Positions 10,360 to 53,950 of a stretch of DNA of 64,000 bases are shown in pieces. This stretch comes from a virus, in the IMG/VR virus record IMGVR_UViG_3300035670_000024. One strand, written 5' to 3'. The first letter of the stretch is position 1. Each line of letters starts with the position of its first letter. A program made the position numbers and the translations under genes. The notes below the pieces were generated by a model that searched no databases, was not told where the DNA came from, and saw only the letters and a program-made list of their open reading frames with translations.

Positions 10360-10431
10360 AGCCACTTGTCAGATTTGAACTGACGACCGCTCGCTTACAA
10401 GGCGAGTGCTCTACCACTGAGCTAAAGGGGC
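10360..10431 (-). tRNA. tRNA-Thr(UGU)
   Basis: Cloverleaf; anticodon arm CTCGC-CT-TGT-AA-GCGAG; T-loop GTTCAAATC; no encoded CCA. Confidence 0.93.
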
Positions 10432-10453
10432 GAATAAAATCATTATAAGGTAT

Positions 10454-10732
10454 TTAGAGAATTTCGTCAAGCACTTCTGGATTCTCAAGTTCAACAGGAA
10501 ATAAACATGGATGCACTTCTTCGTCTATAAGATAGAAAGATTTTTGATAAAAGATTTCAGGAGTCATTGTAAGTTGTTGATTTGCTTTTTCAATTATTTC
10601 AGGATCATTCTGAGCAATTTCAGGAATATCATCAAATGTAAAAGGAATGTTATTAATGTAGTATGTCTTTATAATATATTTTCCATCTTGAGTATTATAC
10701 CAATTATAAGAAAAGGTGATTAGATACTTCAT
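10454..10732 (-). CDS. Hypothetical protein
   Basis: ORF track; strand matches neighbours. Confidence 0.6.
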   Translation of the reverse strand: MKYLITFSYNWYNTQDGKYIIKTYYINNIPFTFDDIPEIAQNDPEIIEKANQQLTMTPEIFYQKSFYLIDEEVHPCLFPVELENPEVLDEIL

Positions 10733-10794
10733 TAGAATTCATCAGTATCTTATATTTATTTTTTATTTTTACCTCTAGAATTTTACCTTAAAAG

Positions 10795-10880
10795 TAGGCG
10801 AGGCGAGACTTGAACTCGCATGGGCACAATGCCCGTCAGATTTTAAGTCTGAGATGTCTAACCAATTCCATCACTCGCCC
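10795..10880 (-). tRNA. tRNA-Leu(UAA)
   Basis: TCAGA-CT-TAA-AA-TCTGA anticodon arm; long variable arm GGGCA-TTG-TGCCC; GTTCAAGTC. Confidence 0.93.
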
Positions 10881-10902
10881 AATAAGATCCTTAAGGATCT
10901 AG

Positions 10903-10976
10903 TGGAAATGCTGGGGATTGAACCCAGAACCTCACGCTTATAAGGCGTGTGCTCTAACCAGTTGAGCTACATTTCC
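10903..10976 (-). tRNA. tRNA-Ile(UAU)
   Basis: GGAAATG/CATTTCC acceptor stem; CACGC-CT-TAT-AA-GCGTG anticodon arm; GTTCAATCC. Confidence 0.9.
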
Positions 10977-10980
10977 GAAG

Positions 10981-11019
10981 TGAGACAATCATAAGGTATA
11001 AACCCCAGATTGTCAAGTG
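10981..11019 (-). promoter_or_regulatory. Sigma70-type promoter for tRNA-Ile (repeat copy 1)
   Basis: TTGACA-17nt-TATGAT; near-duplicate of 11101-11139. Confidence 0.7.
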
Positions 11020-11099
11020 CCCCTAGTCAGATTTGAACTGACAAGCCTCGTAGGCGGTTGATTTTGAGTCAACTGTGTTTACCGTTTCACCACAGGGGC
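11018..11099 (-). tRNA. tRNA-Leu(CAA)
   Basis: GTTGA-CT-CAA-AA-TCAAC anticodon arm; variable arm; GTTCAAATC. Confidence 0.92.
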
Positions 11100-49204: not shown

Positions 49205-50185
49205 TTAATCCTGATACTGATGAAGTTCAATAGGCATAACTCTAAATGACCATTGATCATTATCAGGATCACTTGAAGTATCTGCATATACTTCAATTTC
49301 ACTAGAACTACCATTCCAAGCAGCAGTAAATGTAATATGAGCAGTTAATCCAATTCCAGTGACTCTTCCAATTTCATTTATAAAAACTGAAGTTCCATTA
49401 TAAGGTCTTACAATTAAAAGTTCAGATAATTGGCAATTATTATTAGTTCCTTGACATTGAACCAAAAGTTTCATTGATCCAACTTCATTGTCATAAACCT
49501 TACTAGTATAAATTATGCTGCTTGATGCGACACCAATATAATCTGTTCTACCACTAGCAAGAGAATAATCATTATCAAAATCCAAACCCTGATTATAAAG
49601 GTTTATTCCATTTCCATCACAATAAAAACTAATTGAATATCTATCATACAAACCTGTCCCAAAAGACATTTCTCCATTATTTGAACTGGACTGAATTCGG
49701 ACATCTCCATTACCCAATACAGAAAAATAATTACTATCATCCCCTAAGAAAATATCACCTTTATAATAGTTATTAAGTGGGTCATAATAATTAGAAGTAG
49801 TACTTAAAGTTCCGGCAGTAATGTGAATATGTGGAGCATCATCAGCAACTGTTGGATATATATTTACATATTGTCCATTAGTAACAAATAATTGTCCAGA
49901 GTCTGGATTATCTAATGATGGAGTAAGTTGAATTGCTCCAAGTGCAAATTCATCATTAATATCGCCAATAATCCTTTCGCCAGAAAAAGTAATATTTCCA
50001 GTATTACCACCACCAGTTCCACCGATAGAAACACCACCAGGAGTTGTTCCATCCGATAGTTTTAAAACAGGAGATGGAGAATCAGGATCATAAAATACTT
50101 CTCCTTCATTTCCGACAAATTGAGAAGGATTTTGACCTCCGATTTTTTCTACAAGAACTCTATAGGTTGTATTCGGTATAGACAT
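49205..50185 (-). CDS. Hypothetical protein, probably virion-associated
   Basis: FVGNEGEVFYDP..LKLSDGTTPGG N-terminal motif; late-like CTAAAAA/ATAAATA upstream. Confidence 0.55.
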   Translation of the reverse strand: MSIPNTTYRVLVEKIGGQNPSQFVGNEGEVFYDPDSPSPVLKLSDGTTPGGVSIGGTGGGNTGNITFSGERIIGDINDEFALGAIQLTPSLDNPDSGQLFVTNGQYVNIYPTVADDAPHIHITAGTLSTTSNYYDPLNNYYKGDIFLGDDSNYFSVLGNGDVRIQSSSNNGEMSFGTGLYDRYSISFYCDGNGINLYNQGLDFDNDYSLASGRTDYIGVASSSIIYTSKVYDNEVGSMKLLVQCQGTNNNCQLSELLIVRPYNGTSVFINEIGRVTGIGLTAHITFTAAWNGSSSEIEVYADTSSDPDNDQWSFRVMPIELHQYQD

Positions 50186-50206: not shown

Positions 50207-50689
50207 TTATGATTTCCATAAGGCACCCTCAACCTTTCTTCTTCTCAGTAATCCTGCCTCAACATTAGAACCAGGATTTCTATAAAGTTCTAATGTCTTA
50301 GGAACTTCATCCCATCTTCTTTCTCTTAATACTCTAGAGATAGTATCAAATCCTTTCTCACCATAAAAATCAGCACCTAAGTTATAGATAAAAGAAAGAA
50401 GTGCTCCTCTTTGATTTTCATTCATCTCATCCCAGTAAGGAATTCTTCTGAGTGCTGGGAGAAACTCCGTTTTAATCTGGTGTTCAAATAAAAGATTTGC
50501 CTGATAAAGAGTAATCGTATCAGTAATCTTGAATGGTTTTCCATCAAAATTACGAGTACTTCCCCATCCAATAGTGATAGGTAAATTTCCCGTATGAGGG
50601 TCGTAGTATGCGGTTGGACTGAAATCCTCAAATTCTTTAATTAAAGAGACACCACTTTGAGGAATTTGTGATGCCTCTTCTACTTTTTT
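50207..50689 (-). CDS. GH24 lysozyme domain, probably reached by -1 frameshift from the upstream peptidase
   Basis: LIKEFED..AYYDP..TIGWGST..ALLSFIYNLG..GLLRRRKVEGALW; no plausible independent start near the domain boundary. Confidence 0.85.
   Translation of the reverse strand, partial: KKVEEASQIPQSGVSLIKEFEDFSPTAYYDPHTGNLPITIGWGSTRNFDGKPFKITDTITLYQANLLFEHQIKTEFLPALRRIPYWDEMNENQRGALLSFIYNLGADFYGEKGFDTISRVLRERRWDEVPKTLELYRNPGSNVEAGLLRRRKVEGALWKS
50625..50689 (-). other. Putative programmed -1 ribosomal frameshift signal
   Basis: A_AAA_AAG (50689-50683) immediately before TAG; stem GAGGCATCAC/GTGGTGTCTC; loop TCCTCAAA complementary to downstream TTTGAGGA. Confidence 0.75.
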
Positions 50690-51387
50690 ACAGCAGTAAA
50701 TACACGACCCCATCCAGTAGTAGGACCGTCCACAGTCCATCTACGGACTAAATCAGACCTCTTATAAACGGCACTTCTACCATTAGTTACAGGTCCAGTA
50801 TAACCATCGTTGAGAGAACCATAAGGGTCATTTACAACATAATCTCCTGATGCGGTCTTACCTCTAACTACAAGTATGTGACCCCCAGTAGGAGAAGATA
50901 AAGGACCACGATGGAGTATCCCAATACAAACAGGTTTCCCAGCAGATAACTCACGGTCAAGGTCATCAAATGAAAGATTATACCTAAACTCAGAAGAAAC
51001 TCCGTAAGACTGTAGAACACGGGTTTGAACCGAATGGTCTGTCGTATCACCCACTGCGAAAATCTTGCGAATATATGCGTCATCTCCCTGCGGTCCTACG
51101 AGTGTGCCTGGTTTGAAATACTCAAGGCACATCGCACAGGAAGAAGAATTGCAGGTTCTATCTGGTTGAGTATAATTATCTGTTTGTGGAAACCAAGGAA
51201 CATTTAGAACCCCTTGAGGTTGTGGAGGAGTATTAGGTGTTCTATAAGTAATTACCCAACTTGCCTCATCCTGCATTAGGTCTGATGCTTTCGCAAGCAA
51301 ATCCTTTTCAAGTTGCTCTACTGCGGCAACGTGCTTTGGATTTTTTTCATCATAAAACTTAAAAAAGTTATGAAGGTCTATCTGCAT
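50680..51387 (-). CDS. C39-like cysteine peptidase with an N-terminal cyanophage domain
   Basis: VPWFPQTDN..RTCNSSSCAM (Cys), GGHILVVRG (His), VNDPYG (Asp). Confidence 0.85.
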   Translation of the reverse strand: MQIDLHNFFKFYDEKNPKHVAAVEQLEKDLLAKASDLMQDEASWVITYRTPNTPPQPQGVLNVPWFPQTDNYTQPDRTCNSSSCAMCLEYFKPGTLVGPQGDDAYIRKIFAVGDTTDHSVQTRVLQSYGVSSEFRYNLSFDDLDRELSAGKPVCIGILHRGPLSSPTGGHILVVRGKTASGDYVVNDPYGSLNDGYTGPVTNGRSAVYKRSDLVRRWTVDGPTTGWGRVFTAVKK

Positions 51388-51872: not shown

Positions 51873-52067
51873 TTAGAAGATTCCGAAGAAAAATTTGCCA
51901 GTAATGGCATAAGAAATGAACCCAGAAATAATCCCCATCATCGCCCAGCGACCATTGGTACGCTCTTTAATTTCGTTTGGGGTATACATTCCGTAGTTTT
52001 CATAATACATAGTGGGTTCTTTAGCAAACATATTTTGCTGCCCACGCTCATTTGTTGTAACAGTCAT
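51873..52067 (-). CDS. hli: High-light-inducible protein
   Basis: QNMFAKEP..ERTNGRWAMMG..TGKFFFGIF. Confidence 0.9.
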   Translation of the reverse strand: MTVTTNERGQQNMFAKEPTMYYENYGMYTPNEIKERTNGRWAMMGIISGFISYAITGKFFFGIF

Positions 52068-52393: not shown

Positions 52394-53857
52394 TCAGAAC
52401 TTGAACTTGGTTTGGATTACACCACCCCACTCAGAGGCATTACCACGTTGGGCAGCATCGTTGCTTACATAGAAGATAGCAGGAGTGATGCTGATATTGT
52501 CGGTAACTTGATACTTGTAGAAGAACTCAAGCATCAGGGCATCGTTAGCAAGACCTTCGGCATTTGCGGGTTGACCCACAGCAACACCAGCAGCATTACC
52601 AGCAACGAATGCGTCATCCCACTGAAGACCAACGAACCAAGATTGTGAATCGGTTGCGTCAGTTTCACCAGTGCGACCACTTACGGCATTATAACCATAA
52701 CCAGCACTGACTGAAGGAATGATACCAGTTTCGGTAGGACGCCAGTAAGCATTTACAGCAACACTATTGGAATCCTGATTACCTAGCAGAGTGCCATTAG
52801 CACCTTGGAAACCGTTGTAGGTGCGAGGACGGGTGCCTTCGGAACCGTAACGATAACCAACACCGACACCCCAATTATCCTGACGATAACCAAGTTGTGC
52901 CATCAGGTTCAGGGCACCATCGGATGAGAACATACCAGTTTCGGTGCTATCACCATCCTGAGCAACATAGTTTAGACCAGCAACAAAACCATTGCTTTCA
53001 TACTGAACACCTACACCAGCACCAGTTGCCTTGTTATAAACACCAGGAGCACCAGCAGTAGTGAAGAAATCAAGGATTTCTGAACGGTATGCTGAAGGAA
53101 CCCACGCCATTTCGGTGTTACGAACCTTTGGACCAACGGTTACGGTGAAGTCGTCACCTACAGGGAACTGGTAGTAGATACGGTCAAGTTCTACAGTATC
53201 ACCAGTGGTTTCTGCCTTATCCAGTTTGAATAAGGAAGAACTTGAACCAAAAGGTAGTTCACTGAAGTTACCAGCACGAAGACGGGTGCGGAGTAGGTCA
53301 CGACCAGTAAATGAGGTATCAAAGTTCAGACGAACATCATAGTTGAATGCGGTTCCATCTGCCTTAGTTCCACGACTTTCGTAACCAGGAACACCACCGA
53401 GAACAAAGTTTACCTCACCATTCAGTTTGGTAGTGGTGGAGAATTGCTGTGCTTCAAGCACACCAACCTTTGCTTCTAGACCATCTACACGGGCACGAAG
53501 AACAATCAGTTCTGCCTTGAATTCTTCCTGAAGTTTACGAATTTCATCGGTGACTTCAGTTACACGGTCAAGGCAAGCATTGAAGAGTGCTGCTGCTTCA
53601 TAACGGGTCATTGCCTTACCACCACCAAAGGTGCCGTTAGGATAACCTGCTACACAACCATAACGCTCTACAAGATTGCTGAGTGCCTGATATGCCCAAT
53701 CGGTAGGTTGAACATCAGAGAATTGGTTGATACTTGTAACCTGCTCTGAGGTTGAATACTGATTTACTCCTTCCATATTGAGTTCTGCGGCAGTCGCAGC
53801 GGGAGCAATCAGACCAACAGCAACAGGTGCAAGCATCAGTTGTTGAAAAAGTTTCAT
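52394..53857 (-). CDS. Cyanobacterial outer-membrane porin (Som/OprB-like, SLH domain)
   Basis: Signal peptide; FSDVQPTDWAYQALSNLVERYGC..TRYEAAA SLH; QFSTTTKL; C-terminal GGVIQTKFKF. Confidence 0.92.
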   Translation of the reverse strand: MKLFQQLMLAPVAVGLIAPAATAAELNMEGVNQYSTSEQVTSINQFSDVQPTDWAYQALSNLVERYGCVAGYPNGTFGGGKAMTRYEAAALFNACLDRVTEVTDEIRKLQEEFKAELIVLRARVDGLEAKVGVLEAQQFSTTTKLNGEVNFVLGGVPGYESRGTKADGTAFNYDVRLNFDTSFTGRDLLRTRLRAGNFSELPFGSSSSLFKLDKAETTGDTVELDRIYYQFPVGDDFTVTVGPKVRNTEMAWVPSAYRSEILDFFTTAGAPGVYNKATGAGVGVQYESNGFVAGLNYVAQDGDSTETGMFSSDGALNLMAQLGYRQDNWGVGVGYRYGSEGTRPRTYNGFQGANGTLLGNQDSNSVAVNAYWRPTETGIIPSVSAGYGYNAVSGRTGETDATDSQSWFVGLQWDDAFVAGNAAGVAVGQPANAEGLANDALMLEFFYKYQVTDNISITPAIFYVSNDAAQRGNASEWGGVIQTKFKF

Positions 53858-53950
53858 ATATGTGTTTGTTTTAGTACTAAACGACAAGTGTTAAGAATTA
53901 CAACTGAATTCTCAACTCAATATTTAGTATACAGACACATTTGAAGTTTG

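Follow-up and report, generated by a model that had tools for sequence, protein, structure and literature searches.

The 64,000-nt stretch of viral DNA analysed here, IMGVR_UViG_3300035670_000024 (hereafter the window, meaning this whole stretch, to which all coordinates refer), comes from a cyanomyovirus of the Kyanoviridae whose nearest matches, S-SRM01 and S-PM2, show ~70% nucleotide identity to it. Our subject is a locus on its minus strand at which an open reading frame (ORF) for a C39-like peptidase overlaps, in the −1 frame, an ORF for a lysozyme (Table 1), and the putative programmed −1 ribosomal frameshift that would join the two. The peptidase ORF ends GTA AAA AAG TAG, and the peptidase combined with the −1 reading that starts at its terminal heptamer gives a fusion of 393 aa. 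An original prediction, made from the letters of the window, had described the heptamer, the stop that it abuts and the stem and loop that follow them, and all of these are indeed present on the minus strand, at the positions given. It had also described a −1-frame lysozyme with ATG codons solely inside the peptidase gene, and the list of ORFs agrees: the codons at 50740 and 50713 are the sole in-frame starts of the window's lysozyme ORF.

Table 1. Features of the peptidase–lysozyme locus, in coordinates of the window
Feature	Position	Strand	Basis
Zero-frame ORF, C39-like peptidase, 235 aa	50680..51387	-	ORF list and Pfam
Helical N-terminal module of the peptidase, ~55 aa, function unassigned	51223..51387	-	Alignments A3, A5
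Slippery heptamer A_AAA_AAG, in phase with the peptidase codons as X_XXY_YYZ	50683..50689	-	Sequence
TAG, zero-frame stop directly 3' of the heptamer; terminates the peptidase-only product	50680..50682	-	Sequence and ORF list
Lysozyme ORF, −1 frame relative to the peptidase	50207..50740	-	ORF list
−1 reading: linker KKVEEASQIPQSG, GH24 lysozyme domain, TAA stop	50207..50689	-	Pfam and translation
Two −1-frame ATG codons within the peptidase gene (possible starts, unsupported)	50740-50738, 50713-50711	-	ORF list
Stem–loop: 13-bp stem 50680-50668/50655-50643, 12-nt loop	50643..50680	-	Folds and covariation
Candidate second (pseudoknot) helix: loop 50663-50656 with 50632-50625	50625..50663	-	8-bp complementarity

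The peptidase ORF scores 45.8 bits against Peptidase_C39_2 (PF13529; E = 1.2e-11, residues 61–189, gathering cutoff 24), and alignment A1 shows no variation at its Cys79 or His170; on this profile it is a papain-like cysteine peptidase, with predicted activity. The Peptidase_C39_2 domain is included among the domains of endolysins (PMC5017753). The lysozyme is assigned to GH24 by its profile score (Phage_lysozyme, PF00959; E = 1.2e-17, 64.8 bits against a cutoff of 22.3, spanning 50638–50228), by the KEFE motif containing the catalytic Glu, which is conserved across the relatives, and by the T4/P22-lysozyme fold predicted for an in-frame relative. An AlphaFold2 (AF2) model was made for an in-frame relative, L110, with moderate overall confidence (a predicted local distance difference test score, pLDDT, of 68.7): its lysozyme fold resembles those of GH24 endolysins, including AbLys1 and P22 lysozyme (E about 1e-7), and its linker, residues 230–240, is disordered. 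The active-site region of the peptidase, around the catalytic Cys, is modelled at low confidence and gives only a weak papain-like match, to 2bu3; a sequence search of the PDB with the peptidase returned matches at chance level only. The 393-aa product is probably a bifunctional peptidoglycan hydrolase, i.e. an endolysin.

Conservation of the slippery junction

Three scans of viral metagenome contigs, together with the genomes of isolates, yielded 172 loci with 101 distinct junctions. A slippery heptamer is present in register in 64 of the 65 distinct junctions that have an adjacent −1-frame lysozyme (61 are A_AAA_AAG, one is A_AAA_AAA and two are U_UUU_UUU). It is found in none of the 16 junctions with a separately initiated lysozyme: there, the lysozyme bears an extra N-terminal domain, and the peptidase terminates in GWGRxF-x, without the Lys-Lys (KK) tail. 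Among the 20 in-frame fusions, the heptamer is present in six and absent in 14. The isolates illustrate the range of configurations: separate genes with an ATGA overlap (S-SRM01 and S-CREM2), separate genes with a spacer or a gene between them (DSL-LC02 and DSL-LC03), a single ORF with the lysozyme first (S-CREM1 and PSS2), a single 405-aa ORF with the peptidase first (ACG-2014f, gp198), and a peptidase followed by a lysin that is annotated only as a C-terminal fragment of 72–90 aa (S-PM2 and S-CAM7). The conservation of heptamer and frame, and of a stem 3' of the heptamer (see below), extends over dozens of distinct cyanomyovirus sequences.

The peptidase gene of S-PM2 closes with GCA AAA AAG TAA. 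Its lysozyme occupies the −1 frame, which is opened by a TAG located 13 nt 5' of the heptamer; the earliest ATG, GTG or TTG in this frame is a TTG located past the catalytic KEFEG motif. A stem of 9–11 bp, unrelated in sequence to that of the window, begins 5 nt past the heptamer. In S-CAM7, the peptidase ends GTT TTT TTT CCA CAG TAG, again with a −1-frame lysozyme that has no start codon, and a 13-bp hairpin begins 5 nt past the T run. The coding sequences (CDSs) annotated as 'putative lysin' or 'lysin' in these genomes (S-PM2: L002, NC_006820, 2470–2688; S-CAM7: L007, NC_031927, 2445–2717) do not contain the catalytic KEFEG region, whereas in both genomes the −1 frame, read from the slippery site, encodes the complete lysozyme domain without interruption. 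Both lysin annotations should probably be joined CDSs.

As homopolymer runs are error-prone, and in-frame fused relatives exist, the break in the frame could conceivably stem from a sequencing or assembly error, or from a recent inactivating frameshift, in what is truly a single fused gene. We give this explanation almost no credence. Contigs from two other freshwater studies cross the heptamer of the window (50683–50689) with no insertion or deletion, the A6 junction of S-PM2 is identical in two records, and the T8 run of S-CAM7 is identical in three isolates and two metagenome contigs; one T8 contig is only 88% identical, yet its changes within the stem are G.U-compatible. The extra A that had been named as one observation that would refute the original prediction is thus not seen in contigs from other studies or in resequenced isolates. 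Moreover, 64 distinct sequences, drawn from several isolates and numerous metagenomes, have the same out-of-frame layout, and the lysozyme ORF is intact and conserved throughout, which decay would not permit. The sole metatranscriptome contig spans 50889–51040 only, and thus lies outside the junction. In the probable source run, read depth dips over 50705–50731, a feature that is not interpretable from contigs.

The heptamer by itself carries little weight: in the AT-rich window, A_AAA_AAG occurs 51 times against 47 expected, and hence the case rests on context and conservation rather than on the motif alone. Codon usage was counted over 50 distinct heptamer-bearing junctions. The codon that precedes the two Lys codons ends in A in 49 of 49, although it variously encodes Ala, Val, Thr or Ile and the background frequency of A at this position is 36%. 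Of the two Lys codons, the first is AAA in 49 of 49 and the second AAG in 48 of 49. In the flanking Gly, Asp and Ile codons, all synonymous forms are used, and at the other Lys-Lys pairs of these peptidase genes AAA-AAG is the least used combination (2/31). The synonymous positions of the heptamer are conserved beyond coding need: selection acts on the nucleotides, not on the residues. The zero-frame stop adjoins the heptamer in 30 of the 50 junctions so tabulated.

Downstream RNA structure and natural in-frame fusions

The original prediction had also placed a 10-bp stem 5 nt past the heptamer. This core (50677–50668/50655–50646, two G.U pairs included) is borne out by the folds, and three more A-U or G.U pairs extend it to 13 bp. 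In the window, a 44-nt segment folds with −17.4 kcal/mol (z = −6.8), and a 75-nt segment gives z = −4.19, with none of 200 shuffles folding equally well. Folds were compared across the survey for the segment running from the slippery site to the LIKEFEG codons. The median z is −3.8 for −1 junctions with no ATG at or after the site (87% fall below −2), as against −0.75 for ATGA-overlap forms (36%), −0.07 for separate genes (6%) and −0.17 for in-frame fusions without the heptamer (7%); the first group differs from the other three with Mann–Whitney p values of 2e-5 to 3e-8. Strong structure is specific to −1 junctions that have no ATG at or after the slippery site.

The stems fall into at least four families that are unrelated in sequence between subclades; the variable linker supplies the 5' arm, and the 3' arm always comes from the codons just 5' of LIKEFEG. 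Within alignment A2, which comprises 21 sequences of the window's stem family, 91.3% of the cells at 12 stem pairs are paired, compared with 31–48% in slid controls. Five of the pairs show compensatory changes, and none of 500 shuffles attains the covariation score. The structure 3' of the heptamer is supported by covariation. An Rfam scan of the junction gave nothing near any gathering score.

An H-type pseudoknot, formed by pairing of the loop with sequence further downstream, had been proposed as well, and here the outcome is mixed. The complementarity stands: the loop octamer at 50663–50656 is perfectly complementary to 50632–50625, within the codons of the catalytic EFE motif, giving 8 bp with −10.1 kcal/mol (p = 0.007 versus shuffled loops), and in the subclade with loop ATCCCTCA opposite TGAGGGAT the second helix has p values of 0.003–0.06 against the same type of control. 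Covariation did not follow: when the second helix was tested alone on A2, none was detected, 98 and 102 of 500 shuffles matching the observed pairing and covariation values, respectively. Coding requirements act on both of its arms, which lie in Pro-Gln and Phe-Glu-Gly codons. Furthermore, it is confined to one subclade, being missing from eight of 21 close relatives (where GAA replaces GAG) and from all other stem families, including those of S-PM2 and S-CAM7. The pseudoknot would be sterically feasible and is a possible candidate, and the conserved stimulator would be the hairpin.

In-frame relatives align with the window across the same linker: AKKSEEG in ACG-2014f corresponds to VKKVEEA in the −1 reading of the window. 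In contigs L110–L113 and L114, the run reads A_AAA_AAA_G, one A more than in the frameshift type, and the two domains are in frame. This A7 run lies about 85–100 nt upstream of the lysozyme FEG codons (which include the catalytic Glu), and these relatives retain the stem, with z = −3.7 to −4.5. L115 and ACG-2014f are likewise fused in frame. The existence of natural in-frame fusions, some of them a single A apart from the recoded type, argues that the fusion protein is under selection.

The A7 variants also have to be considered in relation to transcriptional slippage, whereby stuttering of RNA polymerase on A6 (or on the T8 of S-CAM7) would add one base and generate an in-frame mRNA. Every recoding site is a homopolymer run, the A7 forms show that one added base does restore the frame in nature, and T8 approaches lengths at which slippage is known; A6, on the other hand, is short for productive slippage. 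The strict 3' G and the exact X_XXY_YYZ register are needed for tandem tRNA re-pairing and not for polymerase stutter. Additionally, the covarying hairpin follows the run, the base of its stem being 0–8 nt away and the 10-bp core of the window 5 nt away, which is the position of a ribosomal stimulator, whereas known slippage-stimulating hairpins sit 5' of the run. We therefore regard transcriptional slippage as very improbable.

Start codons and the recoding model

An alternative of a different kind is that the lysozyme is translated independently, from ATG 50713 or 50740 in the window and by termination–reinitiation in the relatives, the heptamer being merely the code for a Lys-Lys tail. The two upstream ATGs of the window are in frame, and 11 junctions (the S-SRM01 group and L019) have an ATGA start/stop overlap of the type typical of translational coupling; together with the window, these make up the 12 distinct junctions whose −1 ORF has an ATG upstream of the catalytic Glu codon. 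Nor is a missing Shine–Dalgarno (SD) sequence decisive, as cyanophage genes often have none. Nevertheless, independent translation is impossible in 22 distinct junctions, S-PM2 and S-CAM7 among them, in which neither ATG nor GTG nor TTG precedes the catalytic Glu; these start-less ORFs are opened by a stop a few codons 5' of the heptamer. Indeed, in most relatives a stop located one or two codons 5' of the heptamer closes the −1 frame, such that upstream ATGs of the kind seen in the window would be unusable, and the −1 codons around the zero-frame stop (AAA, AAA, GTA and GAA) include none that is near-cognate to a start. A plain Lys-Lys tail would explain neither why the wobble bases never vary, even in the preceding codon, whose residue does vary, nor why strong covarying structure is found only where there is no ATG; moreover, peptidases whose lysozymes are separately initiated have no such tail. 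On balance, independent translation is improbable, and in most relatives, which provide no separate initiation signal for the lysozyme domain, this domain would be made only as a fusion.

The conserved heptamer, frame and stem, and the relatives without a start codon, instead support the reading first proposed for the window, namely that its peptidase is recoded to give a fusion of roughly 393 aa: in all likelihood, a conserved programmed −1 ribosomal frameshift supplies both this protein and the 235-aa peptidase. Ribosomes translating the peptidase ORF in the zero frame would reach A_AAA_AAG with the stop codon next, at which point the 13-bp stem–loop, its 10-bp core 5 nt downstream, would be placed at the mRNA entry channel. 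Some ribosomes would then slip: both of their Lys-tRNAs would re-pair one base back, from AAA AAG to AAA AAA, allowing passage beyond the stop and through the short flexible linker into the GH24 muramidase, so that a single recoded lysin gene would have the 235-aa peptidase and the 393-aa peptidase–muramidase as its outcome. We infer the slippage itself, its efficiency and set ratio, the peptidoglycan substrate and the role in lysis from this arrangement.

Several points weigh against this model. By eye, there is no AGGAGG-like element 8–14 nt upstream of the heptamer in the junction sequences, although no scan was made; G-rich GWGR codons are conserved ~15–25 nt 5' of the heptamer in most junctions. 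With the full 13-bp stem, the spacer of the window is 2 nt, below the usual 5–9 nt, whereas the 10-bp core lies at 5 nt. In Escherichia coli, the efficiency of A_AAA_AAG is set by the tRNA-Lys complement of the host. As the −1 frame of the window is open back to the ATGs at 50740 and 50713, independent initiation is possible in this particular phage. Lastly, the 11 distinct junctions of the S-SRM01-type subgroup retain the heptamer even though an ATG overlaps the stop and the structure is weak, a pattern which implies that the heptamer may persist where frameshifting is dispensable.

A more speculative extension of the frameshift model, which we consider rather unlikely, is that the junction acts as an evolvable two-state switch that sets the stoichiometry of the two forms of a cell-wall hydrolase. 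The A6 state would make the peptidase by default and the bifunctional lysin by slipping, and the A7 state of L110–L114 would make the fusion by default and a short form by slipping. The efficiency could then follow the state of the host, through modification of tRNA-Lys or through the rate of elongation under light or nutrient limitation. If so, host-dependent slippage would tie the supply of lysozyme, and hence the timing of lysis, to host physiology.

Evolution, precedents and significance

The peptidase tree requires at least 13 changes of configuration, and the A7 forms are nested among the −1 forms. The U_UUU_UUU type (S-CAM7, L007 2190–2240, and contigs L172 and L173) is nested in a marine in-frame clade and has a different 13-bp hairpin; its position among in-frame fusions points to an independent origin of the frameshift signal. 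In the same tree, the peptidase of the window groups with the separate-gene contigs L012 and L013; the window's junction and lysozyme (of the FEDF..TAYYDP type) resemble those of L048, L051 and L075. This discordance suggests that the two halves of the window's locus have been recombined. The in-frame lysin of ACG-2014f keeps A_AAA_AAG, with a 6-bp GC hairpin 5 nt downstream and an immediate −1 stop. A dnaX-like truncating shift was considered on this basis and rejected as a general claim, as 14 distinct in-frame relatives have no heptamer and no structure (median z −0.17); the ACG-2014f hairpin itself has a z of only about −1.4 to −1.9.

The N-terminal module of the peptidase (IDLHNFFKFYDE..NP.HV..) is likewise present at the start of the lysozymes encoded as separate genes in DSL-LC02 (L004 3440–4111) and DSL-LC03 (L005 2267–2935); the N-termini of these lysozymes are 48–52% identical to that of the peptidase in alignments A3 and A5. 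As a domain common to both hydrolases, it may serve in targeting or regulation. The lysozymes of the frameshift type have no N-terminal domain of the kinds found on separate lysozymes, which would fit a need to acquire the module through fusion. An equivalence between the peptidase module and the N-terminal domain of the separate-gene metagenomic lysozymes was not upheld: the hhalign probability was 29%, a suggestion only, and DSL-LC02 and DSL-LC03 alone are clear cases. A further architecture is seen in Synechococcus phage MA10 (L009 1483–2751), whose 422-aa 'endolysin' has a C39-like peptidase fused in frame to a different C-terminal domain; the latter has no Pfam match, and the gene contains no heptamer. 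A QTAHESGGG-like motif in the MA10 protein resembles GH19 chitinase-type lysins.

Several neighbours of the locus may be mentioned. Immediately 3' of the lysozyme is a 326-aa ORF (49205–50185, minus strand) that belongs to no Pfam family, is rich in Gly, Thr and Ser and may be structural. Upstream lie a 64-aa ORF of the high-light-inducible (hli) type (51873–52067, minus strand) and, nearby, a 497-aa ORF (52394–53887, minus strand) that by eye is porin-like, of a cyanobacterial type with an SLH-like N-terminus and a beta-barrel-like C-terminus. DSL-LC02 and DSL-LC03 likewise have hli and outer-membrane-protein genes close to their lysin loci. Elsewhere, the window carries a tRNA cluster (10360–11099, minus strand) comprising Thr-TGT, Leu-TAA, Ile-TAT and Leu-CAA; no tRNA-Lys is encoded in the window.

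The proposed mechanism has well-known precedents. E. coli dnaX (tau/gamma) has the same A_AAA_AAG, a stem–loop a few nucleotides downstream and two products with a common N-terminus. However, the dnaX shift truncates, whereas that of the cyanophages would add a whole catalytic domain; furthermore, dnaX has an upstream SD-like stimulator and encodes a replication factor, as opposed to a cell-wall hydrolase. A −1 slip in the A7 variants L110–L114 would give a short product, and thereby the dnaX topology. The orfA-orfB arrangement of the IS3 family, including IS911, is also similar: a heptamer of the A_AAA_AAG type ends the upstream ORF, the downstream ORF is in the −1 frame, a zero-frame stop is nearby, the site is followed by a stem–loop or pseudoknot, and the fusion bears the catalytic domain. 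The proteins are unrelated, though, orfB is sometimes made alone, and the ORFs have a longer overlap than the few codons seen here.

Among phages, the textbook cases of programmed frameshifting are tail chaperones and capsids. Lambda G/GT and T7 10A/10B are comparable in being conserved −1 frameshifts that produce a short and a C-terminally extended protein in a fixed ratio; they differ in that these are structural or assembly proteins, to which no enzymatic domain is added, and not lysis or hydrolase genes. Two-isoform endolysins, such as LysA of mycobacteriophage Ms6 and those of some clostridial, enterococcal and staphylococcal phages, do pair a full-length protein with a shorter one that shares a domain, but they use an internal in-frame start and share the C-terminus, whereas here recoding during elongation would give a shared N-terminus. 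Closer in content are the single-ORF lysins of ACG-2014f (gp198), S-CREM1 and PSS2, which have the same two catalytic domains; ACG-2014f in addition shares the N-terminal module and has a linker at the equivalent position. They differ from the recoded type in being single ORFs, and most in-frame cyanophage lysins have neither heptamer nor hairpin; in S-CREM1 and PSS2, the lysozyme comes first.

In the searchable literature, the coverage of which is incomplete, we found no report of frameshifting in an endolysin or cyanophage lysin gene, and ribosomal slippage is not annotated at the lysin locus in any of the isolate records that we inspected. The mechanism, of the dnaX/IS3 type, is already known; what is new is the class of gene, how widely the signal is conserved and its having arisen twice.

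Recoding would in this way reach a new class of genes, the lysins or cell-wall hydrolases, by means of a canonical signal that is conserved over a large clade of Kyanoviridae cyanomyoviruses, including the model phage S-PM2, and the frameshift would account for the truncated 'putative lysin' annotations of S-PM2 and S-CAM7 that have no catalytic residue. The lysis genes of cyanophages are poorly known, and the finding bears on lysis in marine and freshwater cyanophages alike. These phages also present a natural experiment: the peptidase and the lysozyme may share one ORF in either order, be joined by the putative frameshift or be encoded separately (some of the separate lysozymes with an N-terminal module of their own), and a slippery site has arisen twice. 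The locus should therefore be a good system in which to ask why phages tune the ratio of peptidase to peptidase–muramidase.

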